Of a stretch of 57,291 nucleotides of DNA, positions 148 to 33,164 are shown in pieces. The number at the start of each line of letters is the position of its first letter. The first letter of the stretch is position 1. Below the pieces are notes generated by a model. The model saw nothing but the letters and a program-made list of their open reading frames with translations. It was not told the DNA's origin and did no database searches. This DNA comes from Candidatus Uhrbacteria bacterium (GTDB taxonomy: Bacteria > Patescibacteriota > Patescibacteriia > JACQRZ01): assembly GCA_016209345.1 (NCBI GenBank), contig JACQWH010000029.1, positions 1-57,291 on the forward strand, written 5' to 3'. Both the position numbers and the translations under genes were made by a program.

Positions 148-2583
148 CTACTCTTTTTTGAGAATGTTCAAAACCTTTTCATGCGCCTCGTCGACTTCCC
201 GCGAAGTCAATGTCCTGTCGGGCGACTGATAGACAATATGAAAAGAGAAGCTTTTGTTGCCCGCGCCGATTTTTTTGTCCCGATAGACATCAAACGGTTC
301 TGCCGATACGATGAGCGGGTGGGCACAGGCAAGTCGGGCGGCGATATCGGCATACGCGCGCTTCTCGCCGACGCATAGCGTCATATCACGCTTCACGCCG
401 GGAAATGCGGGAAGCGGATGATACCTGACCGGAATTCGAGAACATTCGGCGAGCAGGGACACGTCAAACTCACATGCAAAAACAGGATCGTCGATGCCCA
501 GCGCGGCGCGCGTCTTCGGCGATACTTCACCGATATATCCGACACGCGTTCTTCCGCAATAAAGACCGGCGCTCCTTCCCGCGGCGCAGACAGGATCGCG
601 CCCGTCTTCTTTCCGCACGTCCAGAGCAATGCCGAGATCGGCGCATACGCGCGAGACGGTCTCGCGCACGAACGCGAAATGATTTCCCTCTTCCTTTGAG
701 ACATACACGCACGCGCAATACAGTGGCTGGCTCGGTATATCCAGCGTCTCATCGCCGGACGGGTCATGCTCGACGTTCCCTTTCAAAAAAACGCGCGATA
801 GCTGAAACAGCGCGATATTCTTTTCCCTCTGCTGATTTGTCACCACCGCCTCTAAAAGATTTGGGATAAGCGAGCGGCACAGCAGCGGGCGCTCGGCGGA
901 AAGGGGGTTTGCAAGCTCAAAATGCGCGTCGGGATTCAACCCGCACGCAAGCACTGTTTCTTTTCGAGAAAATGCGTACAACTGCACCTCATGAAAACCG
1001 TACTGATACACTAATCTTTTTTTAACCTCTGTCGCAATCTGTCGCTTTCTGTCGATTATCGGCTCACTCAAAGGCATTCGCGGCAAAACCGCGGGAATCG
1101 CATCGTATCCGATAAAACGCACCACCTCCTCAACAACATCTTCGACCGATGCGATATCCTTCCGTCGAAAACTCGGGATGCGCACGGACAGATGATCCGA
1201 TGTTTTTGTAATGTGAAATCCGAGCGCAGTGAGAATACCCGATGCGCGTGCCAATGAAATTGATACGCCCAACATTCTCTCGATCATGGCGACGGTCACT
1301 GTCAGCGGTCGTACCGAAGGGGGCCTGGCATATCGGTCGGCAACCGCGCTCATTACGCGCGCTGCTGGAAATTCATTTTTGAGAATCGAAACGGCTCTAG
1401 CGAGGGCGAGTGAGGGAAGCTCCGGATCAAGATGTTTTTCAAATCTGCGCGAACTTTCCGTTGCGATACCCACGGCGTTTGCCGTGCGGCGAATCGACGG
1501 TCCGTTAAAATTTGCCGCCTCAAGAATAATCGTCCGCGTCCCCTCGTTTACTGACGCATGAACACCGCCGATAATACCGGCGACGGCGACAGGATTATTC
1601 TCATCGGCAATAACAAGTGTCTCTGATGTGAGCGTATATTGTTTTCCGTCGAGCGCCTCGATTGTTTCTCCGTCACGCGCTCTTCGCACAATAATATGCG
1701 CCCCTCCTTTTCTTTCTGAAAGCGTATCATAATCGAACGCGTGCATGGGTTGTCCGTATTCAAGCATCACATAATTCGTCACGTCAACTAAACTGTTTAT
1801 CGGACGCAAGCCCGCAAGCGTAAGCCGTTTTTGCATCCATTCAGGCGATGGAGCCGATGATACTCCATCGACTACAACTCCCATGTATCGAGGGCAGAGT
1901 TCGTGATCTGCTACGTCAACAGTGAGTTGCTTTCCTTTTCCGTGTTTTATTTTTGGTATGGACTGCTCTTTGAAAGGCAGGCGAAACAATGCGGCTACTT
2001 CGCGCGCCATACCGCGATGCCCCCAAAGGTCGGGACGATGGCTTAACGACTTGTTGTCAATTTCAAACACAACTCCTTCATTGCCAAAAAGACGGGACAG
2101 CGGCATCCCGGGAATTGTTGATAGCGCGGAGAGATCTAAAATTTCATGATCATCCTTTGCGGGGAATCTATCACCAAGGCCGATTTCGGATGACGCGCAA
2201 ATCATTCCGTCGCTTTGCACGCCACGAATGGTTGTTTTCTCTAATACTATCGGCTCCCCCTCTCCGTGCCAACGAACCGAAGCACCCGGCAGTGCGACTG
2301 CGACACTCATGCCAACAGCCAGATTAGTTCCACCGCATACAATATGAGGAAGTTCTGCGCGCCCGACATCAACAAGCACGACGCGCAAACGATCCGCGTC
2401 CGGATGCGTCTGTATCTCCTTGATGATGCCGACAACGATAGCGTCAAGCGCGCGTTTTTCCATGTCGGACGATACGCCTTCCACTTCGACCGTGGCAAGC
2501 GACAAGAGGCGCATGATCTCTTCATCGGATACGTCCGAGGGAATATCGACAAATTCCGAGAGCCATTCTTTAACAATCTTCAT
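148..2583 (-). CDS. pheT: Phenylalanine--tRNA ligase beta subunit
   Basis: 811-aa ORF with the PheT architecture: N-terminal tRNA-binding domain (MKIVKEWLSEFVDI...), B3/4 and B5 domains, and a C-terminal anticodon-binding-like domain. Lies near pheS. Confidence 0.95.
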   Translation of the reverse strand: MKIVKEWLSEFVDIPSDVSDEEIMRLLSLATVEVEGVSSDMEKRALDAIVVGIIKEIQTHPDADRLRVVLVDVGRAELPHIVCGGTNLAVGMSVAVALPGASVRWHGEGEPIVLEKTTIRGVQSDGMICASSEIGLGDRFPAKDDHEILDLSALSTIPGMPLSRLFGNEGVVFEIDNKSLSHRPDLWGHRGMAREVAALFRLPFKEQSIPKIKHGKGKQLTVDVADHELCPRYMGVVVDGVSSAPSPEWMQKRLTLAGLRPINSLVDVTNYVMLEYGQPMHAFDYDTLSERKGGAHIIVRRARDGETIEALDGKQYTLTSETLVIADENNPVAVAGIIGGVHASVNEGTRTIILEAANFNGPSIRRTANAVGIATESSRRFEKHLDPELPSLALARAVSILKNEFPAARVMSAVADRYARPPSVRPLTVTVAMIERMLGVSISLARASGILTALGFHITKTSDHLSVRIPSFRRKDIASVEDVVEEVVRFIGYDAIPAVLPRMPLSEPIIDRKRQIATEVKKRLVYQYGFHEVQLYAFSRKETVLACGLNPDAHFELANPLSAERPLLCRSLIPNLLEAVVTNQQREKNIALFQLSRVFLKGNVEHDPSGDETLDIPSQPLYCACVYVSKEEGNHFAFVRETVSRVCADLGIALDVRKEDGRDPVCAAGRSAGLYCGRTRVGYIGEVSPKTRAALGIDDPVFACEFDVSLLAECSRIPVRYHPLPAFPGVKRDMTLCVGEKRAYADIAARLACAHPLIVSAEPFDVYRDKKIGAGNKSFSFHIVYQSPDRTLTSREVDEAHEKVLNILKKE

Positions 2584-2596
2584 ACATCCCTATTCT

Positions 2597-4060
2597 TTAA
2601 TTTTTATAATACTTCGACTCTCTAACCATCTCTTCATCGACCTCCGCAGCTGAAAAATCATGCTTATTCGCTACATTCTCCTTATTTTTTTTAAAAAATA
2701 CAAAACTTTTCATCATCGGTTCATATCGATACCATGAATGCCATACTTCGTCCGATGCATTACTATAACCGACATAAAAAGATGACTTCACTTCATCCCA
2801 TCCGGTACCATCAACGTCAAAAAACGATATATCGTGTCCTCGAAAAGCAGGAGCCGGACCAGATATCCCCGGCTCACCACTATTTGGAATAGACACCCAT
2901 TCACCCCCTCTATTCTGCAAAACATAGACAATTTTTGCTTGCGCTGACACTCCCTCAATGATAATTGCTTGATTTCTTTTCCCGCTCGCAGAGATATGTT
3001 CATTGCTGATTTCTTGGGAATAAAACGTTACTGTATCATCTTTTTCTATACCATAAAAATTGTCACCATTACTATATCGTGTCGTTATTGGAGTTTTGTG
3101 AGTGATAATGCCCCGCGTTTCATTGAGTGTCAGAACGTATGTTGCGCCTTCTTCTTGCGATTGATCAAACGAAAGCCAGAACATACCGTTGCTTTGATAC
3201 GCATACGCACCAATGCCGATACTGACAACCAAAGATGCAAAAAAAATTGTAATGACACTCCATAGGAGCAAATTCTTATTTTTGCGATCAACCCCTTTAA
3301 GTGTATATGGCCGAACATCTTGTTTTATAAAGAGTATCGGCTTTTTTTCCAGTGTTATTCGTATATTCTCGATGCAGGGAGTACCATCGGCGACAATATC
3401 GATACGAAACGGCCTGGTGTTCTCCGTAAACTCCTTTTGAAACTCCTTTTTTTTGCCCTTAAGAATCTTACCGCACCAATACCACGCCTTGTGTGCATTC
3501 AAGTCCTCATTCTTCACGATCTTTCCATCAATCTTCAACTGGATGTCATCGTCGTCTTTTTTTGATTGCGGCGCCATGGCACTTATTGATACTGAAGCAA
3601 TGCCGAGCTCCTGGTATGTCATAAAAACAAGCCATGGCGTCCTGTCTCGCTTTTCTGTTTTGAGTCCATTGAGCTCAACTGTTTTGTTTTCGAGGAGATA
3701 CACCGCAATCGAGGAGAGCAGTGGCTTGCCAAGAACGGAAAAAGAAAGCGTCTGCGCTCCGGCAGAAAACGATGCAACAATATATGCCGTTTGCGCTGCG
3801 CCTTTCAAAATATTTCCGTTCCACAAATCATTGACAAGCAGTTTGTTTTTCCCTCGTATCGAAATAACGTTTTTATTGTTTATGAGCGGCGTCATGCTGT
3901 CTTTTTTCAAAAACGCTCGCCCATTCACCGTATTCTGCCACCAGCTTTTCGCGGATGCATGGATTTCAATACAGTACATACCAGCGACCTGCGCATCGAT
4001 GTTCACAGAGAAATCACTGTTCAAAAAAATGCCGTGCTGTTTGGAGTAAATTTTTTTCAT
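2597..4060 (-). CDS. Hypothetical single-pass membrane protein (orphan, AT-rich)
   Basis: 487-aa ORF with one central TM helix (LLLWSVITIFFASLVVSIGIGAYAY) and no family recognisable by eye. Visibly more AT-rich than the flanking pheT and pheS. Confidence 0.6.
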   Translation of the reverse strand: MKKIYSKQHGIFLNSDFSVNIDAQVAGMYCIEIHASAKSWWQNTVNGRAFLKKDSMTPLINNKNVISIRGKNKLLVNDLWNGNILKGAAQTAYIVASFSAGAQTLSFSVLGKPLLSSIAVYLLENKTVELNGLKTEKRDRTPWLVFMTYQELGIASVSISAMAPQSKKDDDDIQLKIDGKIVKNEDLNAHKAWYWCGKILKGKKKEFQKEFTENTRPFRIDIVADGTPCIENIRITLEKKPILFIKQDVRPYTLKGVDRKNKNLLLWSVITIFFASLVVSIGIGAYAYQSNGMFWLSFDQSQEEGATYVLTLNETRGIITHKTPITTRYSNGDNFYGIEKDDTVTFYSQEISNEHISASGKRNQAIIIEGVSAQAKIVYVLQNRGGEWVSIPNSGEPGISGPAPAFRGHDISFFDVDGTGWDEVKSSFYVGYSNASDEVWHSWYRYEPMMKSFVFFKKNKENVANKHDFSAAEVDEEMVRESKYYKN

Positions 4061-4075
4061 AGTGGCTCACAATCC

Positions 4076-4250
4076 TAGTGCCCTAAGGCACTTTCACGAA
4101 ATAACCTCATCAATTTCATCCCGTCTTCATGTCATCTTTGACCGGAAAAAATCTTCAAAATATGCCCATATTCTTCAGCTTTTGTTCTGACAAATCTGAC
4201 ACGAATCCGGGCGAACTTGAAGATGTTATTTCGTGACAGTGCCTAAACGC
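4076..4250. repeat. Type-3 rod-like hairpin element, copy A
   Basis: Arms AGGCACTTTCACGAAATAAC (4086..4105) and GTTATTTCGTGACAGTGCCT (4225..4244) pair at 19/20 positions. The interior matches the reverse complement of copy B at 53750..53911. The right arm contains the pheS stop codon. Confidence 0.6.
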
Positions 4251-5271
4251 CCCCATAAAACTGCTTTAAAAATGCGAGGTCGCCGCTTTCAAAAAGGCGC
4301 ACATCATCGATGCCGTATTTCAGCATGGCAAGGCGCGTGAGACCGAACCCAAACGCGAGACCCGACCACTTTTTTGGATCAAGTCCGCCTTCTCGCAACA
4401 CGTTTGGATGAATGCGTCCGGCGCCGAATATTTCCAAAAACCCCGTTGACTTGCACAACCGACATCCATCACCGCGGCAAAAAAGACAGGTCACCTCACC
4501 GCTAACTCCCGGCTCAACAAAAGGATAATATTTGGGCCGCAAACGCACACGCGTATCCTGTCCGTACAGATAGCGCGCGGTTGCTTCAAGAATACCCTTC
4601 AAATGCGCAAATGTAATATCGTTGCCGACAATAAAACCCTCGAGCTGAAAAAATGTATGCTCGTGTCGAGCATCTGTTTCTTCATTTCTAAAACATCTGC
4701 CCAGACAAATGACTGCCAACGGCGCGCCATATTCACGCATTGCACGCACTTGCGCGGTAGATGTATGCGTGCGGAGCAGCCGGCCGGGCAAATTCTTAAT
4801 ATAAAACGTGTCCTGCATGTCGCGCGCGGGATGATCGGCGTCAAAATTTAACCCCTCAAAATTATAATAATCGGCTTCCAGCTCCGGACCGTCATATACG
4901 CGAAACCCCATACCCGCAAACATTTCTTCAAGCTCTTGAGAAATAAGCGTAATGGGATGAAGAGTACCGTGCGGCAGAGGCGGTATGAGACATTCCGTGA
5001 CGTCGATTGCTTCGATGGTTTGATGTTCAATAAGCTCTGCGCGCCGCGCGGCGATCGCCTCAAAAATCGCTTTCTTTGCGTCGTTTGCCAATTGTCCCTG
5101 CACCTTCCGTGCTTCCGGATCGAGATTCTTCAGCCCCTTCAAAATGTCCGTCATCACGCCTTTTTTTCGCCCAAACAAAGACAACTCGATTCTGTCGAGT
5201 TCGACTACCGTGCGTGCCTTTTGAATCTTCGTGAGCGCCCCTGACCGGAGTGCTTCTATCTTCTTTTGCAT
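4243..5271 (-). CDS. pheS: Phenylalanine--tRNA ligase alpha subunit
   Basis: 342-aa ORF with class II aaRS motifs typical of PheS (HPITLISQELEEMF..., FRNEETDARHEHTFFQLEG, GFGLTRLAML). Confidence 0.95.
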   Translation of the reverse strand: MQKKIEALRSGALTKIQKARTVVELDRIELSLFGRKKGVMTDILKGLKNLDPEARKVQGQLANDAKKAIFEAIAARRAELIEHQTIEAIDVTECLIPPLPHGTLHPITLISQELEEMFAGMGFRVYDGPELEADYYNFEGLNFDADHPARDMQDTFYIKNLPGRLLRTHTSTAQVRAMREYGAPLAVICLGRCFRNEETDARHEHTFFQLEGFIVGNDITFAHLKGILEATARYLYGQDTRVRLRPKYYPFVEPGVSGEVTCLFCRGDGCRLCKSTGFLEIFGAGRIHPNVLREGGLDPKKWSGLAFGFGLTRLAMLKYGIDDVRLFESGDLAFLKQFYGGV

Positions 5272-5281
5272 TGCCGCGCAG

Positions 5282-5308
5282 AAAAAAAATATGCTGTGAA
5301 CAGCATAT
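5282..5308 (-). terminator. Rho-independent terminator-like hairpin between pilB and pheS
   Basis: The minus strand reads ATATGCTG-TTCA-CAGCATAT followed by T8. It ends about 10 nt upstream of the pheS ATG. Confidence 0.55.
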
Positions 5309-5376
5309 CAAAGAAAAACCTGCCTGTGAAGCCCGACCGTGCCATAGTGTGAGCCGCGTATCGGGCTGCGTTGGGA

Positions 5377-7110
5377 TTATTCTCGCGTGACACGCAAAAG
5401 CTCTTCGAGCGATGTTTCGCCGCGCATCGCCTTGACGATGGTATCCTGCTTCATGGAAAGCAGTTTTTGACGGTTGCGCTCCTTTTGGAGCACATCGATA
5501 TTCACGCGCGTATTGAGAATCTCTTGAAGTTCGTTTGACATGGAAATCGCCTCCACCACCACTGTGCGCCCCTTGTACCCGCTCTTGTCGCAGTCATCGC
5601 ACCCAACCGGTCGAAAAAATTGCGGCTGCGTGCCCGGCGGCATGATTTGTTTCACGAATTCCTGATCGGGCATTGTTGCTATTTCCCCATCCACCTCCGC
5701 CTTGAGATATTCCGGCGTCTCGGTCGGTGCCTTGCATTTCTGACAGAGTTTCCGCACCAGGCGCTGCGCCGTAATGGTGTTGAGCGCCGCGCCGATCAAA
5801 AACGGCTCCACGTGCATATCGACAAGACGGGGAATGACGCCGAGCGCGTCCTTTGCGTGAATGGTCGAAAGCATGAAGTGCCCGGTAAGGGCTGTGTGAA
5901 TCGCCAGCTCGGCCGTCTCGCGGTCTCGGATTTCCCCAACCATAACAATGTTTGGATCCTGGCGCAAAATAGCGCGCAGCCCCGACGCAAACGTCAAGCC
6001 AACCTCCGTATTAATCTGAACCTGGTTCAGTCCGGGTGTTGCGTATTCAATCGGATCTTCGAGCGTGGTGATGTTCACTTTCTCGGTATTGAGCGCCGTG
6101 AGCATGGAATACAGCGTCGTCGACTTTCCCGATCCGGTCGGACCGCTGATAAGCAGCACGCCGGTCGGACGGGCAATGATCTTTTTCAGCACCTCCAGCA
6201 CATTCCCCCAAAACCCCAAATCCTCAAGCGTAATGATTTTTGTCGTGGTTGGCAAAATACGCATCACCACCTTTTCGTTTGCCATCATGGGCAATGTCGA
6301 CACGCGAAGATTAATCTCTTCTCCAAACACCTCGATGCGAATGCGCCCGTCTTGGGGAATACGGGTTTCGTCTATCTTGAGATTTGCCAATACTTTTATG
6401 CGCGCAACGATTGCCGAGTGCATGTGTGCGGGCAGCGCCAAATACGTGCGCATGACGCCATCGACGCGGAAGCGCACGCGTGTTTCTTTCTCGGACGGCT
6501 CGATGTGAATATCCGACGTCCCCACCCCGACCGCCTCTTCAACAATAAGTGTGACGATCTTTGCAACCGGGGCTTTGCGGATTGTTTCACTGATATTGGC
6601 CCGCTTTTTTTTACGCTCTTCGCGCTCAACGACCTTCCGCTCCTCTATTTGTTCGACGGCCTGGGTCACTTCGCTCTGAAACGCGGTATAGTTTTTCATC
6701 GCGTCGCGATACCCCTCCGCCGTCGTAATGTATTTTGACAACGTGTATCCTTCGCGCTTTGCCCAAAACTCAAGCGCTTCCAGCGCCCGGTAGTCGCCCG
6801 GATTGGTCAGGGCAACTTTCACATTCGATTCCTGTTTTTCAAACACAACGATACCGTAATTCTCGGCGACCTGCTGGGGGATAATGGTGAGCACCTCGCG
6901 AGGGATATCGCTGCGCTCCAGATCGATAAAAGGCACGTCATACAGCTCACCCTTCACTATGACGATATCTTTTTCGGCAACGACTCCGCTATCAAGGAGT
7001 ACCTGCTCAACGTCCTTCTTGTCCTTCGTCGCTGCATCCTGAGCTTGCGCGGCCTGCTCGGACGTGATGATTTTTTTGTCTAGAAGCGCTTGAAAAAGTC
7101 GGCTATCCAT
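5377..7110 (-). CDS. pilB: Type IV pilus assembly / type II secretion ATPase (PilB/GspE family)
   Basis: 577 aa with Walker A GPTGSGKSTT, Asp/His boxes, a C-terminal tetracysteine motif (CQKC...CDDC) and an N-terminal GspE-N-like domain. Confidence 0.9.
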   Translation of the reverse strand: MDSRLFQALLDKKIITSEQAAQAQDAATKDKKDVEQVLLDSGVVAEKDIVIVKGELYDVPFIDLERSDIPREVLTIIPQQVAENYGIVVFEKQESNVKVALTNPGDYRALEALEFWAKREGYTLSKYITTAEGYRDAMKNYTAFQSEVTQAVEQIEERKVVEREERKKKRANISETIRKAPVAKIVTLIVEEAVGVGTSDIHIEPSEKETRVRFRVDGVMRTYLALPAHMHSAIVARIKVLANLKIDETRIPQDGRIRIEVFGEEINLRVSTLPMMANEKVVMRILPTTTKIITLEDLGFWGNVLEVLKKIIARPTGVLLISGPTGSGKSTTLYSMLTALNTEKVNITTLEDPIEYATPGLNQVQINTEVGLTFASGLRAILRQDPNIVMVGEIRDRETAELAIHTALTGHFMLSTIHAKDALGVIPRLVDMHVEPFLIGAALNTITAQRLVRKLCQKCKAPTETPEYLKAEVDGEIATMPDQEFVKQIMPPGTQPQFFRPVGCDDCDKSGYKGRTVVVEAISMSNELQEILNTRVNIDVLQKERNRQKLLSMKQDTIVKAMRGETSLEELLRVTRE

Positions 7111-16921: not shown

Positions 16922-18130
16922 ATGAATATATCTCGTTCAGTTCACTTTATTGTCATTCTTGCAATGGCCGTCACCGCCCTTTTTGCTATCCCCGCCTTTG
17001 CCGCGCCACCTGCCGGTACCGGCAGCGTGCGCCTCTCCGGTGATACATTTCCGGATTTTACATTTCAGATACCGATTGGAAATATCGCCGTCATTAACAG
17101 CGATGAAATCGTCAACGGAACGGCAATCGCCATCTATATCGGCATCATCTATCAGTGGGCGGTGGCATTTGCGGCCGTATTGGCTGTCCTTGCGTTCACC
17201 TATGCCGGCGTGCTATGGCTTATTGCCGGCGGGGATAGCGGCAAAGTGACGGAATCGAAAAAAATCATGGGCAACGCGATCATCGGACTCCTGCTCGCGC
17301 TGGGGTCGTATGTGTTTCTCAACGCGATCAATCCAAATCTCGTTCATTTCCAGCCGCTCAAAGTACCGGCTGTCAAAACCATTTCCCTGAATCTTACCCC
17401 CGCGTCAATCACTTCCGGCGGCATCACGGCCACCTACGATGTCGGACATTTTACCGCTCTTGGATTTCCGGCGCCAAACACGGAGGATGACCCCGGTAAA
17501 AAAATCCCGCTCAAGGGTGAAGTTCTCAACAGATGGCAGACATTGCAGCCGCTCGCCATGAAAGCGGCCCAGGCAACCGGCACCGACGTTGGCTTTATCG
17601 GCATGTGGCCCCTCTATGAGAATGGATTTGATACATTTATGGACAACTGCCAAGATACGGACACCAATCAAAATACGCCGTGCAGCGCATGGGGAGACGG
17701 TTGGCAGGTTGGCCTTGGCGTTCATCCGGGCAATATGCTTTGGGCATACGATGGCGGCTTTACCGCGATGTACGGCGATGCAAGCGATGCCACCGTACAG
17801 AAAGTAGGACAAAGCGTTCTTGATGCCGCGAGAGCCGCGGGCAAACCGATTACCATTGTTTCCAATCCATTTCCAGCCGCTTCTCTTGCAACAACGATTC
17901 AGAGCGCAAAAAACGGAGATCAACAGGCCCGACTCCTTATCGCGACTCTTACGAAAGACCCTGCGCTGGGACTGTACCTTGTTGGCGCGCATTTCGGCTC
18001 ACGCGATCTGGGTGGCCGTGGAGCAGATCTTGCGCGCGTGATGGATATGTGGGATAAAAAGGAGAAGGATGGCTACTACCACCCCCAGCGTATCAGTAAT
18101 TATATTAAAGCGGTCTATGACGCAAAATAA
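16922..18130 (+). CDS. T4SS-pilin-like (TrbC/VirB2-like) domain fused to a C-terminal soluble domain (possible glycosidase/VirB1-like)
   Basis: Signal peptide, then two hydrophobic helices with the GDSGKVTESKK loop (IYQWAVAFAAVLAVLAFTYAGVLWLIAGGDSGKV...LLLALGSYVFLNAINPNLV), typical of CPR/Gram-positive T4SS pilin-like proteins. The ~230-aa C-terminal domain is unassigned. Confidence 0.6.
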   Translation: MNISRSVHFIVILAMAVTALFAIPAFAAPPAGTGSVRLSGDTFPDFTFQIPIGNIAVINSDEIVNGTAIAIYIGIIYQWAVAFAAVLAVLAFTYAGVLWLIAGGDSGKVTESKKIMGNAIIGLLLALGSYVFLNAINPNLVHFQPLKVPAVKTISLNLTPASITSGGITATYDVGHFTALGFPAPNTEDDPGKKIPLKGEVLNRWQTLQPLAMKAAQATGTDVGFIGMWPLYENGFDTFMDNCQDTDTNQNTPCSAWGDGWQVGLGVHPGNMLWAYDGGFTAMYGDASDATVQKVGQSVLDAARAAGKPITIVSNPFPAASLATTIQSAKNGDQQARLLIATLTKDPALGLYLVGAHFGSRDLGGRGADLARVMDMWDKKEKDGYYHPQRISNYIKAVYDAK

Positions 18131-19145
18131 AAACAAAACGGCAATAAAAAAATGCGTTCTCGCTTTTTTTGTATCGGCGGTTTTGGCTGGCGTTCTTTTT
18201 TCATCTTCGGTCAATGCCGCCGACAACATCACCGTCACGCTTCAGATCCCGATTATCGGAGAAACGAACGTTCCCGTATGCCAGACGACGATCGGACCGG
18301 GTGGAAATGAAATTCTTGAATGCACCGGCATTGCCCGATATATCGGTATTGTATATCAGTGGGCGGTCGCGTTTGCGGCCGTTTTGGCTGTCCTTGCGTT
18401 CACCTATGCCGGCGTGCTATGGCTTATTGCCGGCGGGGATAGCGGCAAGGTGACGGAATCGAAAAAGGTTATGGGCAACGCAATCATCGGCCTCCTTCTT
18501 GCGCTGGGGTCCTACGTGCTTCTCAATGCAATAAACCCGAACCTTGTCGGGTTTGACGTCCTTCGACTTCCGGGAATCGCAAAAATTGAGCTTGATCTTA
18601 AACAGGTCGAGGACCACGGAGAGGAAACCGGCGATACCGGAGGTGTCGGGGGAATAGAAATAGCCGGCGATGGCAACCTTGATCGCCTCGCCGGATTGGT
18701 GCGCGATAACAAGCAGTTTGGCCTTGAACCAAGCCACTGTCTTGGCTGGGTCCGAAGAGCGCTTGTCCACATCTACGGTGAAGCAAAGTTCGCCGGATCG
18801 CCGCTGATAGGATCGGGCGCGTATCCGGGCCTCGTTGCGAAAAAATTTCTGGATGCAAGCAAGTTCACCGTCGGACTCCAGGGCGTTAAAAATGGTGATG
18901 TTGTTTTTATGCAGACGCCAGGTTCGCATCTTATCGCCATCGGTCGTGATACGGATTTACCGGGATATTCTGTCACCCATATCGGCATTTACTATAATGG
19001 TTCTGTGTATCACCAATTCGGAAAAGCCCTGCGCATAAGCAAAGTCCAAAAAACCCCCTCCGTGGCAAATGAAGACAATGTATTTACTGAGTCGGAAGGC
19101 GCGAAAAAGCTAAAGGTCATCGGCTACGGAAGCATGGGGCTTTAA
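18117..19145 (+). CDS. T4SS-pilin-like domain fused to a CHAP/NlpC-P60-like peptidase domain
   Basis: Same pilin-like module as the upstream gene. The C-terminal domain has a candidate Cys (PSHCLGWV) and His (VTHIGIYYNG) arrangement. The start was moved to MTQNKNK with a signal peptide. Confidence 0.6.
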   Translation: MTQNKNKTAIKKCVLAFFVSAVLAGVLFSSSVNAADNITVTLQIPIIGETNVPVCQTTIGPGGNEILECTGIARYIGIVYQWAVAFAAVLAVLAFTYAGVLWLIAGGDSGKVTESKKVMGNAIIGLLLALGSYVLLNAINPNLVGFDVLRLPGIAKIELDLKQVEDHGEETGDTGGVGGIEIAGDGNLDRLAGLVRDNKQFGLEPSHCLGWVRRALVHIYGEAKFAGSPLIGSGAYPGLVAKKFLDASKFTVGLQGVKNGDVVFMQTPGSHLIAIGRDTDLPGYSVTHIGIYYNGSVYHQFGKALRISKVQKTPSVANEDNVFTESEGAKKLKVIGYGSMGL

Positions 19146-19153
19146 ATTATCGT

Positions 19154-19221
19154 ATGGCGACAACAATTTTCATCTGCTCGCAGTGCGATGCGCAAAGCCC
19201 AAAATGGGCCGGACGCTGTTT
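19154..19221 (+). pseudogene. Orphan duplicate of the radA 5' end
   Basis: ATGGCGACAACAATTTTCATCTGCTCGCAGTGCGATGCGCAAAGCCCAAAATGGGCCGGACGCTGTTT encodes MATTIFICSQCDAQSPKWAGRCL, against RadA MALSVYICSNCDAQSPKWAGRCL. Homology stops at 19221. Confidence 0.7.
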
Positions 19222-19253
19222 GTCAGGAAATAGTGGCAAGTCCGATTTTCTAC

Positions 19254-19931
19254 TCACATGCCGAGTTGATGGCTTCGAACGGCCTCGGTGATTGTCTTTT
19301 TGATTTTTTTCCACGTCACCGCTCTATCAAAAAGTTTTACTCTGTCAATATCGTCATCTTCCTCCGCGTCATTAAAATAGAGTAGCCCCCGAAGAAAAAA
19401 GAAGTGGTTATACATCGGATATTTTTCTAATCCGAAGCGGATCATCTCATCCAGTGAAAAAATGTGTAATAAATAATATATATCAACAAAATCTCGATGA
19501 CGACCACGTTGCGCTATTGCGATGAGCTTCATTGCCGCAATATCCTGCAACGATGCAACCAATACCCCCTGCATAGGTATTGGCGATGCAACAAGCGGAT
19601 ATTCATAATAGAAACAGCTCAAGTGAATATCCGGTTTTGCCAAAAGATCAAAATTATCCTTTATGTCACGCGTTATCTCAATCTGCCAACGTTCTGCCAT
19701 GTACGAATAAAAGAGTTTGCTCAATGTTCCTTTAGCAAAGTGGCGTTGCCGATAAAAATCAAAATCTACTGACGTCCGATGGCCAATCTGTAGTGCGAGC
19801 GCAGTCCCTCCGGCAAGATACATGCCCGTCTTTTTCGTCCACGTAAGCTGTGAAAAAAAACGAGCCCGTGCCGGTGAAAGGACACTGTCAATATAACATG
19901 TTTTCTGTTGTTTTCTGATCATCGTCTTCAT
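19254..19931 (-). CDS. Nucleotidyltransferase AbiEii/AbiGii-family toxin-like protein
   Basis: Has the N-terminal motif LAGGTALALQIGHRTSVDFDFY characteristic of the AbiEii family. 225 aa and AT-rich. Confidence 0.6.
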   Translation of the reverse strand: MKTMIRKQQKTCYIDSVLSPARARFFSQLTWTKKTGMYLAGGTALALQIGHRTSVDFDFYRQRHFAKGTLSKLFYSYMAERWQIEITRDIKDNFDLLAKPDIHLSCFYYEYPLVASPIPMQGVLVASLQDIAAMKLIAIAQRGRHRDFVDIYYLLHIFSLDEMIRFGLEKYPMYNHFFFLRGLLYFNDAEEDDDIDRVKLFDRAVTWKKIKKTITEAVRSHQLGM

Positions 19932-20251
19932 TTACTCATCTTTATTCGCGGCGGAGGAAGCCCTGTTGGCGTGAGAGAAAAAAGAGCTCGCGCATAATCT
20001 CCCTTCGATGGTTGGACATTATATATGGTGGTCCAATAAACAAGCGCATCCTCGCGCCATATTCCACGCGCTGGATATTTGATATACTTTATGAGTGTTC
20101 TCCTGGAAAATGTCCTTAATGCCCATTGAATCTGCTTCCATGTTCCGTAATTTAAAATTTGCGGAATAATGGTTCCTGCGTGCTTTCGCGCATCTATAAG
20201 CGAAAGGTCATACGACCAAAGCGCTGATTGTAAAAATTTTGGTACCGCCAT
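19928..20251 (-). CDS. Small partner protein of the AbiEii-like gene (putative antitoxin)
   Basis: 107 aa, with a 4-nt ATGA overlap onto the downstream toxin-like gene. The LWSYDLSLID...NYGTW...W motif recalls a family often found upstream of AbiEii-like genes (from memory, unverified). Confidence 0.5.
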   Translation of the reverse strand: MAVPKFLQSALWSYDLSLIDARKHAGTIIPQILNYGTWKQIQWALRTFSRRTLIKYIKYPARGIWREDALVYWTTIYNVQPSKGDYARALFSLTPTGLPPPRIKMSK

Positions 20252-20270
20252 ATACTATTAGTATACCATA
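20228..20270. promoter_or_regulatory. Divergent overlapping promoters (radA on +, toxin cassette on -)
   Basis: Plus strand: TTGTAA, 17 nt, then TATACT (20251..20256). Minus strand: TGGTATACT (20260..20268), 8 nt before the ATG at 20251. The two -10 boxes form the palindrome TATACTATTAGTATA. Confidence 0.4.
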
Positions 20271-20287
20271 TTTTAAGCAAAAAATCA

Positions 20288-21685
20288 ATGGCTCTTTCTG
20301 TCTATATTTGTTCAAACTGCGACGCGCAAAGCCCTAAATGGGCCGGACGCTGTTTGGAATGTGGCGGATGGGGAACGTTGTCGCAAGGCGTCGCTGACGG
20401 ACAAAAGAAAGCGACATCAACCGCTGCTCCAGCCGATGCTACCCCCTTCTCGCAAATCTCTCACGAAGATGTCCCGCGTCGCTCAACCGGCATTGCCGAA
20501 GTTGATCAGGTGCTTGGCGGCGGCATTGTTCCGGGGAGCTTGATTCTGCTCGGAGGAGAGCCGGGGATCGGGAAGTCAACTCTGCTTGGGGAAATCGCTT
20601 TGAAAATGGGGTCAGGCACAAATTCTCTTCGCGAAATTGAGCCAGACCCCATTTTCTACTGTTCGGGTGAAGAATCGGCACAGCAAGTCAAAATGCGGTT
20701 TGACCGCCTGATGTCATCCCGAGCGCAGTCGAGGGATCTGCTCTTCATCGGCGAAACGAATTGCGAAAAAATTTGTAGCGCACTCCGCCATCACAAGCCG
20801 GCGCTTGCCATTGTTGACTCCATACAAACGATCGCGTCATCAGATATTCCATCTGAAGCGGGAAGTATCGCACAAGTGCGCGCGTGCACTGTCAAACTCC
20901 TTGAAGTTGCAAAACAGGAAAACATCCCAATCATTATTACCGGCCACGTCACGAAAGAGGGTGGCGTTGCGGGTCCCAAAACACTCGAACACTTGGTAGA
21001 TACCGTCCTGTATCTTGAGGGTGATGCGAGCCAGTATTTTCGCCTTCTCAAAACAGTAAAAAACCGCTTCGGCTCAACCAACGAAATAGGTGTCTTTGAA
21101 ATGACGGGTCAAGGACTTGTCGAGGTAAAAAATCCATCGGAACTGTTTCTTTCGTCGGACAGCGAACACGCGGCGGGCACTGCGACCACCTGCGTCGTGG
21201 AAGGATCGCGCGCCTTTCTCGTTCCCATTCAAGCATTGACGAGCAAAACCTACTTTGGGTATCCTCAAAGAAAAAGCATCGGCATCGATGCAAACCGGCT
21301 GGGACTTCTTGTCGCGGTGCTTTCAAAGCGACTCGGCGTCAATCTCGGCGATCAAGATATTCACGTCAACGTTGTCGGCGGATTGAAAATCAGCGAGCCG
21401 GCAGCTGACTTAGCGGTGTGCGCCAGCATCTTGTCCTCATACAAAAACAAAATGGTGTCTGGTTCCATTTCTTCAAAAATGGTACCTGACACCATTTTGC
21501 CGACTATTTTCTTTGGCGAAGTGGGTCTCACCGGCGAAGTGCGGCCCGTGAGCCATACCGAGAAACGACTCAAGGAGGCGGAAAAGCTCGGCTTCAAGGT
21601 TGCGTATATTCCAAAACAATCAAAGAAAATCTCAACAAGTATTCAGCTTGTTGAGATTAAAAACATTCGCGATCTCGAAATTTAG
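20288..21685 (+). CDS. radA: DNA repair protein RadA
   Basis: N-terminal zinc ribbon (CSNCDAQSPKWAGRCLECGGWG), Walker A GEPGIGKST, the KNRFG motif and a C-terminal Lon-like domain. Confidence 0.95.
   Translation: MALSVYICSNCDAQSPKWAGRCLECGGWGTLSQGVADGQKKATSTAAPADATPFSQISHEDVPRRSTGIAEVDQVLGGGIVPGSLILLGGEPGIGKSTLLGEIALKMGSGTNSLREIEPDPIFYCSGEESAQQVKMRFDRLMSSRAQSRDLLFIGETNCEKICSALRHHKPALAIVDSIQTIASSDIPSEAGSIAQVRACTVKLLEVAKQENIPIIITGHVTKEGGVAGPKTLEHLVDTVLYLEGDASQYFRLLKTVKNRFGSTNEIGVFEMTGQGLVEVKNPSELFLSSDSEHAAGTATTCVVEGSRAFLVPIQALTSKTYFGYPQRKSIGIDANRLGLLVAVLSKRLGVNLGDQDIHVNVVGGLKISEPAADLAVCASILSSYKNKMVSGSISSKMVPDTILPTIFFGEVGLTGEVRPVSHTEKRLKEAEKLGFKVAYIPKQSKKISTSIQLVEIKNIRDLEI
20602..20656 (+). repeat. 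In-frame palindromic insertion element P1 (55 nt)
   Basis: GAAAATGGGGTC...GACCCCATTTTC has 12-nt terminal inverted repeats. It is 100% identical to P3 in recG and encodes (K)MGSGTNSLREIEPDPIF just after the RadA P-loop. Confidence 0.8.
21448..21499 (+). repeat. In-frame palindromic insertion element P2 (52 nt)
   Basis: CAAAATGGTGTC T GGTTCCATTT CTTC AAAATGGTACC T GACACCATTTTG is a nested palindrome. It encodes KMVSGSISSKMVPDTIL in the RadA Lon-like domain, where E. coli RadA is about 12 aa shorter (from memory). Confidence 0.7.
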
Positions 21686-29190: not shown

Positions 29191-31323
29191 CTACTCAAGA
29201 TGCACCGTACCCTGGAATTTTATGATATGATCTTTCAGTTCCGGATACGTTTCAAGAATGCCGACATACTCTTGCGCATACGTTCGTGCTTTTTCAATGA
29301 GCTCGGTATCAAACAATGTTGCGATTTTTAAGCTTGGCATACCGGACTGGCGCAAGCCGCGGACATCACCCTCTCCGCGCAATTCGAGATCTTTCTCGGC
29401 CAACGCAAAGCCGTCATTAGAGGCAACAACCGCTTTGAGGCGCGCAATCTGCTCCCTCTCCTCATTGGTTGGAGCCAAGAAGCAATACGACTGGTGCTCC
29501 GCTCTTCCGACGCGTCCGCGCAATTGATGAAGCTGTGCGAGGCCGAATCGTTCCGCGCCTTCAATAAACATCACGTTGGCATTTGGTACGTCAACGCCAA
29601 CTTCTACGACCGACGTTGTGACAATGATATCGACTTCATGGTCGCGAAATGCGGTCATGATCCTCTCTTTGTCGGCTGGCTTCAGCTTGCCGTGGAGCAT
29701 GGCAACGCGTTCGCATCGAAACGGTCCCTCTGTCAGCCGCTTATATTCCTCGGTCACCGACCGTACGCCAAGCGTGTCTGTAGGATTGATAATGGAACAG
29801 ATAACAAATGCCTGCCGTCCCCTGCCGATCTGTTTTCGGATAAAATCATAGGTCCATCCGCGATAGGATTGAGGGACGATTTTTGTAATGATTTTCTTTC
29901 GCCCTTTGGGCAGGGAGCGGATGGTGGAAATATCAACATCGCCATATACCGTAAGAGCGAGCGAGCGCGGAATGGGCGTCGCGGTCATCGACAACAAGTG
30001 CGGCATCAGTGAGTCGCGATTTTTTTCCCGCAGAACCTTTCTCTGCATGACACCGAAACGATGTTGTTCGTCTATGACTGCGAGCGCAAAATTTTTGAAA
30101 AAAATCTTTTCTTGCAAAAGCGCGTGCGTGCCGATGATGATATCAACACCACCGGTTGCTATCGTAGCTCTTACTTCTTGATTCTTAATTCTTGATTCGT
30201 GATTCTGCGCTGTCAAAAACGCAATGCGAACATCAAAATCCGCAAACAGCTTTTTTAATGTAGTAAAATGTTGCCGCGCCAATACTTCCGTCGGCGCCAT
30301 AAGCGCGCACTGATACCCCGCGCGCACGACGTTAAGCATCACCAGTACGGCGACAATGGTCTTCCCTGCGCCGACATCCCCTTGAAGCAGACGATTCATG
30401 GGCATTGAATGTTCGATATCGCGAAAAATCTCCCACGCCACTTCCTTCTGTTCTCTTGTCAGAGAAAACGGCAAAGATGCGATGAATGTTTTTGTCGCCT
30501 TCGCATCAAAAGGAATGGCGTGCGCAGACAGTTTCGCAAGCGAGTTTTTTACTCTTAAACTTGAGAGCTGATAAAGAAATAATTCTTCGAATTTGAATCG
30601 CCGCTCTGCGGCACGCGCATCCTCCAACCGATCCGGAAAATGAATATCCTCAAGCGCGTCGTATAATGAGGTCATCTGCTCGTTTGCAAGCAGATGGGCG
30701 GGAAGCCATTCACGTACGTCGCCACCACCACACGCATCAAGAGCGTTTCTCATGAGTGTTCGGAATTGTTTCTGGGTGATGCCGGATGGAAGCGAATAAA
30801 CCGGCACCAGGCGAGCGGTATGGAGGAAAATGGGGTCTGGCTCAATTTCGCGAAGAGAATTTGTGCCTGACCCCATTTTCTCATATACAGGACTGACCAT
30901 CTGAAGATCATAGTAACTATCGTTGGTCTTCCCGCTCAGAGAAACATATTCCCCGACATGAAGATTTTTTATCAAAAACGGCTGATTGAACCATATCGCC
31001 TTTATACTCCCGCTCTCGTCAGATATGAGCGCCTCCGTGACGATCATGCGCCTGTTCCGCGATCTTCTATTGCCAATCATATCAATACGCCCATGGATTG
31101 TTGCGCGTGTTCCGATGCTCAGATCGGCAATGGACGCGCTGTATGAAAAATCGTCGAACCGATAGGGAAAATAAAAAATGAGATCCTTGCAGGTCTCAAT
31201 TCCCATCTTCGCTAATTGCTTTTGGAGTACTGTGCCCACTCGAGGCAAGCTCGAAACGGGCATGTCGCTATCCGCCATACGCATTATGAGAGTGGTGAAA
31301 AATAGCTTCCCGGTCAGTTCCAT
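29191..31323 (-). CDS. recG: ATP-dependent DNA helicase RecG
   Basis: Wedge domain plus SF2 helicase motifs (GDVGAGKT, DEQHRFG, SMTATPIPR, the TTSVVEVGVDVPNA region, HQLRGRVGR). The true start is probably a downstream Met (MADSD or MPVSS). Confidence 0.9.
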   Translation of the reverse strand: MELTGKLFFTTLIMRMADSDMPVSSLPRVGTVLQKQLAKMGIETCKDLIFYFPYRFDDFSYSASIADLSIGTRATIHGRIDMIGNRRSRNRRMIVTEALISDESGSIKAIWFNQPFLIKNLHVGEYVSLSGKTNDSYYDLQMVSPVYEKMGSGTNSLREIEPDPIFLHTARLVPVYSLPSGITQKQFRTLMRNALDACGGGDVREWLPAHLLANEQMTSLYDALEDIHFPDRLEDARAAERRFKFEELFLYQLSSLRVKNSLAKLSAHAIPFDAKATKTFIASLPFSLTREQKEVAWEIFRDIEHSMPMNRLLQGDVGAGKTIVAVLVMLNVVRAGYQCALMAPTEVLARQHFTTLKKLFADFDVRIAFLTAQNHESRIKNQEVRATIATGGVDIIIGTHALLQEKIFFKNFALAVIDEQHRFGVMQRKVLREKNRDSLMPHLLSMTATPIPRSLALTVYGDVDISTIRSLPKGRKKIITKIVPQSYRGWTYDFIRKQIGRGRQAFVICSIINPTDTLGVRSVTEEYKRLTEGPFRCERVAMLHGKLKPADKERIMTAFRDHEVDIIVTTSVVEVGVDVPNANVMFIEGAERFGLAQLHQLRGRVGRAEHQSYCFLAPTNEEREQIARLKAVVASNDGFALAEKDLELRGEGDVRGLRQSGMPSLKIATLFDTELIEKARTYAQEYVGILETYPELKDHIIKFQGTVHLE
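30826..30880 (-). repeat. In-frame palindromic insertion element P3 (55 nt)
   Basis: The reverse complement is identical at 55/55 positions to P1. It sits in the same codon phase and encodes the same peptide, (K)MGSGTNSLREIEPDPIF, in the RecG N-terminal region. Confidence 0.8.
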
Positions 31324-31454: not shown

Positions 31455-31526
31455 TGCACCCGGTAGGAATCGAACCTGCATTGCGGGATCCGCAATCCCG
31501 TGTCCTATCCGTTGAACGACGGGTGC
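31455..31526 (-). tRNA. tRNA-Arg (anticodon GCG)
   Basis: Manual cloverleaf: acceptor GCACCCG/CGGGTGC, anticodon stem CGGGA/TCCCG, loop TTGCGGA, and a T-arm GCAGG-TTCGATT-CCTAC with one mismatch. 72 nt, with no encoded CCA. Confidence 0.9.
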
Positions 31527-31583
31527 AAAAAAGAACTGTCATGTGCTCCTGCCCATGAAATCAAATGAATCTGCCAAAAGCGC

Positions 31584-32071: not shown

Positions 32072-32144
32072 TGACTGGAAAACGATACAATGTTCGATCG
32101 GAAAAGGATATATCCACAGCGTCGTTCTCTATAAAAAATAGATG

Positions 32145-32153
32145 TGCTATAAT
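32145..32153 (+). promoter_or_regulatory. Extended -10 box TGCTATAAT, 6 nt upstream of the ATG at 32160
   Basis: TGTGCTATAAT-GGAGAC-ATG. The ORF-track start at 32142 would lie inside this box. Confidence 0.45.
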
Positions 32154-32159
32154 GGAGAC

Positions 32160-33164
32160 ATGGTAGAACTGCTTATGGAAAAACGCATCCTATTTAAAAA
32201 GGGGGAGCAAAGGGAACTGCTCGACCAAATACTCGACCACCTTTCTGTTAAAGACATGGCATTGGCTTGCCGTTGTTCCGAAAGAACAATACGAGATTGG
32301 CATCGTGAAAAATTTTCTATTGATTTTGATTCATTACGAAAACTGTGCGATACAACCGGTGTCACATTTCCCGAAGAAGGTGTTGAAATTAAAAATCGCT
32401 ATTGGTACACATCTATTGGAGCACAACTCGGCGGAATAGCAGCGATGCAAAAATATGGGCGCGTAGGCGGAGATCCAAATCATCGTAAGAAAAAATGGCG
32501 CGAATGGTGGGAGCGAGAGGGAAAATTTAGAAAGGACCTCATCACGAACAATCCTTTATCGATTCAACTTCCAAAACCGTCTCCGGCGTTAGCGGAGTTC
32601 GTTGGCATAGTGCTCGGCGATGGTGGCATAACAAAAAATCAGGTTACCATTACACTCCATAGATTTGATGATAAGAAATATGGAACATTTGTAGCGCGCC
32701 TTATTGCATCTCTATTTAAAGTACCTGTTGGTATTTATCAGGATATGAATGCTCTTGCTACAAGCTATGTTATATCTCGAGTTATACTCGTCAACTTTTG
32801 CGAAAAGCAACTCGGACTTCAAAGAGGAAATAAAATAAAACATCAGGTTGATATTCCTGAATGGATTAAAACAAACAAAAAATTTTCTGTCAGCTGTGTT
32901 CGTGGTCTTATAGATACCGACGGAAGCATATTTGCTCATCGGTATCGCGTAGGCAGGAAGGATTATTCTTACAAAAAACTACAGTTTGTTTCTCGATCAC
33001 AACCGCTAAGGCAATCCGTATTCCACATACTGCAAAATAGCGGGTTAACTGCACGCCTTGGCAGACAGTATGACATATGGATCGATAATCAAAAAGAATT
33101 AACGAAATATTTTAAAATTATAGGGACTCACAATCCGAAACATTTGAATAATTATTTAAAATAG
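32160..33164 (+). CDS. Free-standing LAGLIDADG-family homing-endonuclease-like protein
   Basis: Two LAGLIDADG-type motifs (FVGIVLGDGGI and VRGLIDTDGSI) plus an N-terminal HTH-like region. AT-rich. Confidence 0.7.
   Translation: MVELLMEKRILFKKGEQRELLDQILDHLSVKDMALACRCSERTIRDWHREKFSIDFDSLRKLCDTTGVTFPEEGVEIKNRYWYTSIGAQLGGIAAMQKYGRVGGDPNHRKKKWREWWEREGKFRKDLITNNPLSIQLPKPSPALAEFVGIVLGDGGITKNQVTITLHRFDDKKYGTFVARLIASLFKVPVGIYQDMNALATSYVISRVILVNFCEKQLGLQRGNKIKHQVDIPEWIKTNKKFSVSCVRGLIDTDGSIFAHRYRVGRKDYSYKKLQFVSRSQPLRQSVFHILQNSGLTARLGRQYDIWIDNQKELTKYFKIIGTHNPKHLNNYLK

Follow-up and report, generated by a model that had tools for sequence, protein, structure and literature searches.

An integrase-less AbiEii-type cassette between an orphaned radA start and intact radA in a groundwater Uhrbacteria genome

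Introduction

Integrative and conjugative elements (ICEs) of the SXT/R391 group, which use the 5' end of prfC, and the elements found at dusA, such as IMEVchUSA3, are 20-100 kb long, carry a tyrosine integrase together with a directionality factor, and have been shown to excise (PMC2791158; bioRxiv 10.1101/2021.06.18.448947). In the dusA elements the altered N-terminus is 61% identical over 35 residues (PMC2791158; bioRxiv 10.1101/2021.06.18.448947). Here we analyze a stretch of 57,291 nt, hereafter the window, from an uncultured groundwater Candidatus Uhrbacteria bacterium of the candidate phyla radiation (CPR) (GCA_016209345.1, contig JACQWH010000029.1, positions 1-57,291, forward strand), in which a two-gene cassette with an AbiEii-family nucleotidyltransferase lies between an orphaned start and the intact copy of radA. 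As with SXT at prfC and the dusA elements, the inserted DNA has direct repeats on both sides and lies inside a conserved housekeeping gene, at its 5' end; the gene stays intact with a new, here predicted, promoter.

Displaced coding ends are also described for Rhs and contact-dependent inhibition (CDI) toxin loci and for effector-immunity loci of type VI secretion systems (T6SS), which show C-terminal displacement and orphan modules through homologous or homology-facilitated illegitimate recombination (PMC5361080). Closer to radA, integrations of pneumococcal prophages at attB_scr, upstream of dut-radA, were linked by experimental measurement to inhibition of transformation (bioRxiv 10.1101/2024.08.13.607808). 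Both there and in the window a mobile element lies between radA and its native transcription signal, but the element at attB_scr is a complete prophage, integrase included, whose 22-bp duplication lies outside the radA coding region.

Transformation-linked recombination is driven by the helicase RadA. CPR bacteria, with their tiny genomes, have few recognized mobile-element enzymes, which raises the question of how accessory genes such as toxin-antitoxin (TA) modules enter and turn over in them.

A displaced radA start and a repeated core

The locus comprises the following features, given as window coordinates and strand with the evidence in brackets; L090 and L103 are loci compared below.

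18069..19145, plus strand: upstream gene U, a fusion of a pilin-like module with a hydrolase-like C-terminus (Pfam T4SS_pilin at E = 3.6e-5, which falls short of the cut-off)
19154..19222, plus strand: orphan radA 5' end (nt 1-69), which codes MATTIFICSQCDAQSPKWAGRCL and holds the first RadA zinc-knuckle (tblastn; Zn_ribbon_LapB, E = 2.6e-5)
19190..19222, plus strand: core copy 1, coding AQSPKWAGRCL (32/33 identical to 20324-20356)
19223..19253, minus strand: cassette 3' tail, past the AbiEii stop (19226-19252 against the L103 tail, 85% of 27 nt, E = 0.045, a weak match)
19254..19931, minus strand: AbiEii-family nucleotidyltransferase, putative toxin, 225 aa (Pfam PF08843, PADLOC AbiEii models)
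19928..20251, minus strand: DUF6922 protein, putative antitoxin and upstream partner, 107 aa (Pfam PF21956)
20226..20307, plus strand: 82-nt block 100% identical to L090 that takes in the promoters, radA codons 1-7 and DUF6922 codons 1-9 (no exact match between the two loci is longer)
20228..20288, both strands: interleaved divergent predicted promoters (consensus scan, motif matches)
20288..21685, plus strand: intact radA, 465 aa, starting MALSVYICSNCDAQSPKWAGRCLECG (TIGR00416)
20324..20356, plus strand: core copy 2 (32/33 identical to core copy 1)

The intact RadA matches TIGR00416 with 531 bits (cut-off 403) over residues 4-462, and Pfam Zn_ribbon_LapB, AAA_25 and ChlI match it as well. Gene U is the conserved left neighbor of radA in Uhrbacteria, and a gene of the same kind stands directly before radA in the related loci L096, L097 and L100; in the window its stop lies 8 nt ahead of the orphan ATG at 19154. 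The open frame of the orphan start extends to 19291, although beyond nt 69 the sequence is unrelated to radA, and tblastn with radA matches the orphan to residues 1-24 at 75%. Between the core of this stub and the radA ATG lie the 1,065 nt of the cassette (19223-20287), with a GC content of 0.35-0.475 compared with 0.53-0.58 in the flanks. The initial annotation, made from the letters alone, had placed an orphan radA start at 19154 and the intact gene at 20288, on either side of a ~1.07-kb AT-rich cassette with an AbiEii-like gene and a 107-aa partner. Both starts were found where it had put them, and open reading frames (ORFs), Pfam and GC content agree with its view of the cassette.

Repeat finding delineated a 51-nt pair at 19172-19222 and 20306-20356 with 86% identity. 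This average conceals a sharp step, as the 20 nt before the ATG match at 5/20 positions, nt 1-36 at 20/36, nt 37-69 at 32/33 and the next 16 nt at 4/16. Outside the repeat, that is before the ATG and after nt 69, the two copies match at chance level, and the contrast between nt 1-36 and the core is significant (Fisher p = 5e-5). The annotation had reported a 31/32 repeat (19190..19221 and 20324..20355) preceded by 36 nt diverged by roughly half; the former holds and grows to 32/33 when extended to 19222/20356, and the latter corresponds to the 20/36 match. A 20-nt core pattern has two occurrences in the window, where 0.05 would be expected, and local alignment of the two radA 5' copies scores 68, a value reached by 0/3000 shuffles (null 15.2 +/- 2.2).

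Core copy 1 of the window resembles core copy 2 more than it resembles the radA cores of relatives, with which it shares 26-30/33 positions, and the two copies have in common the synonymous choices GCC GGA CGC TGT TTG that are missing in relatives. Upstream of the core the affinity differs. The 20-nt leader and first 36 nt of the stub match the native junction of L100 at 14/20 + 28/36 = 42/56 positions, compared with 5/20 + 20/36 = 25/56 for the window's own new 5' region. Because its best match is this junction of upstream gene and radA, and because it retains the conserved I-C-S-x-C-D residues, the stub at 19154-19222 is, by these matches, a genuine former radA start in its native position, in line with the proposal that the original start had been orphaned upstream. 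The stub is also a mosaic, with an L100-like native leader and first 36 nt joined to a core that carries this genome's own synonymous variants.

Empty and occupied sites in relatives

The closest proteins to those of the window are from Candidatus Uhrbacteria. In a RadA tree computed with the N-terminus left out, the window falls together with P0122 (locus L090) and P0123 (locus L091) at a support of 96/91, and a second clade holds P0124 (L096), P0125, P0128 (L100) and P0129. The RadA of the window is 85% identical to both P0122 and P0123; the radA genes of the window and L090 are 79% identical overall in a MAFFT alignment. The window, L090 and L091 lineages were found together in the same groundwater samples by means of Logan contigs. 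Such contigs from four groundwater runs, which drop rare variants, are also the basis of the assembly, junction and variant checks below.

Comparison with other genomes, as the annotation had suggested, revealed empty sites in four other Uhrbacteria (L096, L097, L100 and L094), where radA directly follows the upstream gene, with a gap of 1-77 nt in L096, L097 and L100. A test for a radA-like stub ahead of the gene, made on L096 and L097, found none (p = 0.8). Wider searches added little to this set. Scanning metagenomes with the core pattern gave one relevant locus, L094, with its site empty, and a scan of genome contigs with RadA returned relatives that, among the matches listed, are all at <=54% identity. 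Scans of viral contigs found nothing related; four exact 22-nt matches in viral contigs belong to an unrelated phage family and were dismissed. Along the radA body, a sliding-window comparison revealed no point at which affinity changes from one clade to another.

The two closest relatives are both occupied. In L091 the order is pilin gene, decayed stub, DUF6922/AbiEii pair, promoter region and radA. Its stub is 71% identical over 66 nt, has a stop and by hand count is ~53% identical in nt 1-36; the gene pair is 40%/32% identical to that of the window. A copy at a different locus, L001, is far closer to the window pair (74% for AbiEii, 72% for the partner). L090 has a stub with a 14-nt leader, an unrelated 608-aa gene, the first 14 DUF6922 codons of window type, the promoter region and radA. 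The 608-aa gene (4085-5911) has a weak SLT match only (E = 0.006) and stands in the cassette's place behind the same promoter. Upstream of the L090 stub, at 3800-4010, GGGGTCAGG/CCTGACCCC palindromes are densely packed.

The stubs of the window, L091 and L090 each have an alignment score that 0/3000 shuffles reached, with one stub per locus and no arrays. All three members of this radA clade thus have an insert and an orphan stub with differing cargo, and the insertion is not private to the window genome. Since inserts with differing cargo occur in relatives, the radA 5' end is a recurrent lodging site with turnover of cargo. The annotation had named as evidence against its reading a related genome without the cassette that still carries the duplicated radA 5' fragment. 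This applies in half to L090, which lacks the toxin pair and has the duplicated fragment, but around another insert.

In L101, from a more distant radA lineage, a 67%-identical cassette occupies the same place in the same orientation, and the first radA codons overlap the -35 box of the cassette. A candidate 24-nt stub in L101 was not significant (p = 0.15). A further toxin-antitoxin-like pair was seen next to radA in L098, and also in L099, where a 93-aa gene and a PIN-domain gene, together VapBC-like, lie directly upstream of and co-directional with radA (4326-5004 in L098). The pair overlaps the radA start by 4 nt in L098, and the radA start region GAAAAATATGAAGGAA recurs there as a 16-nt repeat at the start of the 93-aa VapB-like gene, which is marginal (p = 0.049).

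Limits of the cassette and the new radA codons

Copies of the same cassette subfamily adjoin a pilin gene at L001 (3501-4649) and at L103 (3-674), in both cases divergent from the pilin gene. Homology of L001 to the window covers w19263-20290 at 72% DNA identity, and the tail of L103 matches w19226-19252. Taken together, homology with L001/L103 begins ~30 nt beyond the stop codon of AbiEii (19226) and reaches the -35 box touching the radA ATG (20290), and from these limits the cassette at 19223-20287 fills the gap between the two radA copies exactly. A search for the core beside other copies of the cassette, as the annotation had proposed, came back negative, as the pilin-locus copies have no radA-like arm or core.

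According to the annotation the element had brought its own replacement radA 5' end. This part of the claim is not carried by the comparison; the L001/L103 copies stop at the -35 box, and the new radA codons (nt 1-36) are 31/36 identical to the native start of L096, a relative with an empty site. Because the pilin-locus copies end at the -35 box, the replacement codons are not demonstrably cassette-borne.

The pilin gene of L001 is broken, with residues 1-32 followed by ~700 nt of unrelated sequence and residues 47-160, and it is intact in L103; L001 also has a Y1 transposase gene at 2481-3122. A 78-nt direct repeat around the L001 cassette, which at first sight resembled another instance of 5'-end duplication, turned out to be the shared 5' end of two tandem pilin paralogues, unrelated to insertion. 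In the window, a repeat termed D2 (19227-19254 against 20633-20660, 75%) might have come from the radA body or from a palindromic element, but is better explained as the 3' tail of the cassette (weak L103 match).

The DUF6922/AbiEii pair

The larger cassette gene matches PF08843 with 63.6 bits (cut-off 22.5) and 12 PADLOC AbiEii models, and its partner matches PF21956 with 41.2 bits (cut-off 27). The small gene lies upstream and shares 4 nt with the larger one. The nucleotidyltransferase motifs (GG..., hD.D and R/K..RD..D) are intact, with GGTALALQIGHR-SVD-D and RGRHRDFVD (YLAGGTALALQIGHRTSVDFDF and AQRGRHRDFVDIYY) conserved in the five family members compared. DUF6922 precedes AbiEii in L001-L008, L091, L101 and L103, with L009 cut off at its upstream end, and is therefore paired with AbiEii at every fetched locus where the upstream part is present. 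Its N-terminal motif PxFLQSALWSY is nearly invariant.

The partner has no match among PADLOC or NCBIfam models. Its AlphaFold model is all-helical with five helices (pLDDT 88, pTM 0.74), and a Foldseek search with it against the Protein Data Bank (PDB) gave no match (best E = 4.2). No cognate AbiEi (COG5340, with an N-terminal winged helix) was found, as the partner matches DUF6922 only. On the evidence of these protein matches, the pair resembles an AbiE-type module in gene order only. By analogy it probably acts as an AbiE-like addiction or defense module, in which the nucleotidyltransferase toxin would be neutralized by the small partner. The annotation had seen no integrase in the cassette, and indeed neither of its two genes is a recombinase; none was found among 10 other window ORFs tested.

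Near further DUF6922/AbiEii pairs, a reverse transcriptase gene (RVT_1) adjoins a bAvd-like gene in L003 (9469-10648) and L004 (6220-7219), a few kb from the pair, which suggests a diversity-generating retroelement.

Interleaved predicted promoters

A consensus scan placed a sigma-70-like predicted promoter on the plus strand, leading into radA (TTGTAA-17-TATACT, 20228-20256), with its -35 box inside DUF6922 codons 6-8. On the minus strand a predicted promoter for DUF6922 (TTGATT-17-(TG)TATACT, 20288-20260) ends 8 nt before the DUF6922 ATG, so its transcript would be near-leaderless. Since the two interleave, competition or joint regulation would be expected, and they probably compete or are co-regulated.

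Homologous promoter regions are present in L001, L103 and L091. L090 is without toxin genes and keeps the promoter segment at 100% identity inside the 82-nt block. The loss of the toxin genes with retention of exactly the promoter piece supports a cassette-derived radA promoter, and we infer that radA is transcribed from such a promoter inside the DUF6922 start. The annotated claim that the element brought a promoter is in this respect consistent with a motif that lies inside the cassette and is retained in L090.

How the locus may have arisen

We hold, at about even confidence, that the toxin-antitoxin cassette became lodged in the radA 5' end by homology-driven recombination within the conserved core. 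Recombination inside the 33-nt AQSPKWAGRCL segment would have made the structure, with co-occurring relatives exchanging alleles there; no other stretch of diverged radA alleles is sufficiently similar. The most likely agent would be host homologous recombination on incoming DNA, either a Campbell-type insertion of a circle or the arrival of a relative's insert-bearing allele via transformation, and an element-encoded integrase is less likely. Each exchange would leave the recipient's first codons as an orphan and would join promoter, new 5' end and cargo to the resident gene body. Severed from its upstream operon, radA would now use the promoter with a -35 box in the first DUF6922 codons. At informative sites, where L090 and L091 differ, the window has 11 that are L090-like (20248-20305), then 15 that are L091-like (20314-20390), and is mixed thereafter (permutation p = 0.02). 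These short mosaic tracts in common with L090 and L091 favor homology-driven exchange at the core, and none of the tested ORFs is a recombinase.

Several points weigh against this account. Duplication is not obligatory, as L101 has a cassette without a detectable stub. The new radA codons would lie outside the cassette, judging from its copies at other loci, and resemble the native start of L096 (31/36). The core identity could stem from later gene conversion and not from a founding crossover, and the similar positions at which the three stubs end (~nt 66-79) would be explained no less well by a site-specific enzyme or by one ancient event. In the Logan contigs of the four runs, which drop rare variants, this lineage shows neither an empty-site allele nor a deletion joint or a circular junction. 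The predicted promoters come from motif matches in AT-rich DNA, where 10 were found against 3.2 expected, and the DUF6922 model is without a match to any antitoxin or DNA-binding fold in the PDB.

A single ancient event is a possible, if rather doubtful, origin. The ancestor of the window, L090 and L091 would have received one insertion that also duplicated roughly the first 70-85 nt of radA in tandem, followed by vertical descent. Cargo would later have been swapped or eroded. Patches of gene conversion between the two radA copies, and of exchange with relatives, would maintain their partial likeness, and the core would be just the best-conserved, repeatedly converted part of them and no crossover site. 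The presence of insert and stub in all three clade members is what such descent would leave, as are stubs that end at similar radA positions (~nt 66-79) and synonymous choices common to a stub and its own radA (GGCCGGACGCTGTTTG in the window, GGACGATG in L091). The L090 stub likewise shares the promoter end and first codons with its own radA, and the stub tails of the window and L091 both carry a non-radA ...CGAT motif. Common age is difficult to reconcile with the state of the stubs, however. That of the window is undecayed, keeps its frame and Cys/Asp residues and is 75% identical to the functional L100 junction including the leader, whereas the supposedly coeval L091 stub has a stop and matches at ~53% in nt 1-36 by hand count. 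Moreover, the cassette of the window has 74% identity to copies found elsewhere, against 40% to the one in L091, which occupies the same site, and the three junctions between cargo and stub differ (31-nt, ~7-nt and 0-nt tails).

We consider it unlikely that the cassette is a non-autonomous integrative element moved in trans by a site-specific recombinase, a miniature of the SXT-prfC/dusA islands in which attP would consist of promoter, new radA codons and core, and attB of the core in radA, in line with the annotation's reading of an element that recombined at a core site. The abrupt edges of the repeat speak for it, as identity jumps from 56% to 97% at the left edge of the core and homology stops at nt 69, and the same site is reused with differing cargo and similar end points. 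Yet no recombinase was found in the cassette or the 10 other tested window ORFs, the pilin-locus copies have neither a radA-like arm nor the core, the Logan contigs of the four runs show neither a circular nor an empty form, and the stub ends lie ~10 nt apart between genomes.

Returning to homology-driven exchange, a bolder version of it, which we think improbable, is a recombinase-free 'homing' cassette. A TA pair between radA 5' repeats would spread from one co-occurring CPR bacterium to another through DNA uptake and homologous recombination by the host at the 33-nt core, which codes zinc-finger residues, orphaning the start codons of each recipient and putting RadA under an interleaved, probably autoregulated promoter. 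If true, a selfish module would control RadA, the machinery that both spreads it and could delete it.

Soundness of the assembly

Logan contigs (18600-19474/19482) span the left junction in 3/4 groundwater runs, and in run X4 a contig bridges the cassette interior. The right junction passes through the 82-nt block, which is identical in a relative 5-10 times more abundant, and unitigs break there because 20226-20307 is identical in this abundant relative. In run X1 the block has two left and two right paths only, and their depths pair as 9.8x/10.0x and 78x/75x. Private synonymous variants are common to the stub and the window radA. From this depth pairing and the private variants of stub and radA we treat the structure as real, and the annotation's concern that the repeat might be an assembly artefact is not borne out, with contigs across the left junction and paired depths at the right. 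A chimeric contig across the block, with the cassette and this radA not neighbors, would suit unitigs that stop at 20255 and start again at 20300 and the identity of 20226-20307 with an organism at 75-175x depth, but it is highly improbable given that the paths pair by depth with the L090 assembly independently joining the other pair, that stub and radA carry common private synonymous variants, and that L091, an independent assembly, has the same architecture.

Further features of the window

A palindromic element of ~55 nt occurs twice inside radA in frame (20602-20656 and 21449-21501) and once more, identical but inverted, at 30826-30880. In Logan contigs the palindrome-bearing stretch 20602-20755 has a depth of 100-850x compared with ~10-15x in the flanks. 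At 32142-33164, a 340-aa ORF has weak LAGLIDADG_3 and HTH_26 matches (E ~4e-4 to 6e-4) and adjoins a tRNA-bearing region, in which 31455-31529 is an exact 75-nt match to L098.

Comparison with known systems

A recombination hot spot at the radA 5' end is real and of a broadly known kind. As in SXT and the dusA elements, flanking direct repeats with an identical core and empty attB sites in relatives are found at the window locus, and the altered N-terminus of its RadA (17/23 residues) has a counterpart in the 61% over 35 residues of dusA. Unlike these elements, the window cassette has 1.07 kb and two genes, no recombinase and no excised form seen in contigs, and its new codons are not demonstrably part of the element.

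Rhs, CDI and T6SS loci are similar in other respects. They share with the window recombination within a conserved coding stretch, a displaced end kept as a stub with partial core, toxin-protector cargo, turnover among co-occurring relatives and mosaic tracts at the junction, although in the window this recombination is our proposed and not an observed step. The window layout is mirrored, lying at the 5' end, its host gene is a DNA-repair helicase, and its cargo is a separate operon with one stub and no array of orphans. With AbiE (AbiEi/AbiEii) type IV systems the cassette has in common an AbiEii toxin, here putative, and an operon layout in which the small gene comes first and overlaps the second by 4 nt; its partner is DUF6922 and not AbiEi (COG5340 winged helix-turn-helix).

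What is new here is that a small cassette, without an integrase, occupies the 5' end of a housekeeping gene whose old start stands displaced beside it. In radA, a gene important for repair and recombination, a conserved coding segment serves as a recurrent landing site, with a scar in the form of the old start and a predicted rewiring of the gene to the promoter of the insert. If the exchange is homology-driven, the locus would allow one to test the coupling of a selfish module to the control of RadA, and the displacement logic of polymorphic-toxin loci would reach to the 5' end of a housekeeping gene.

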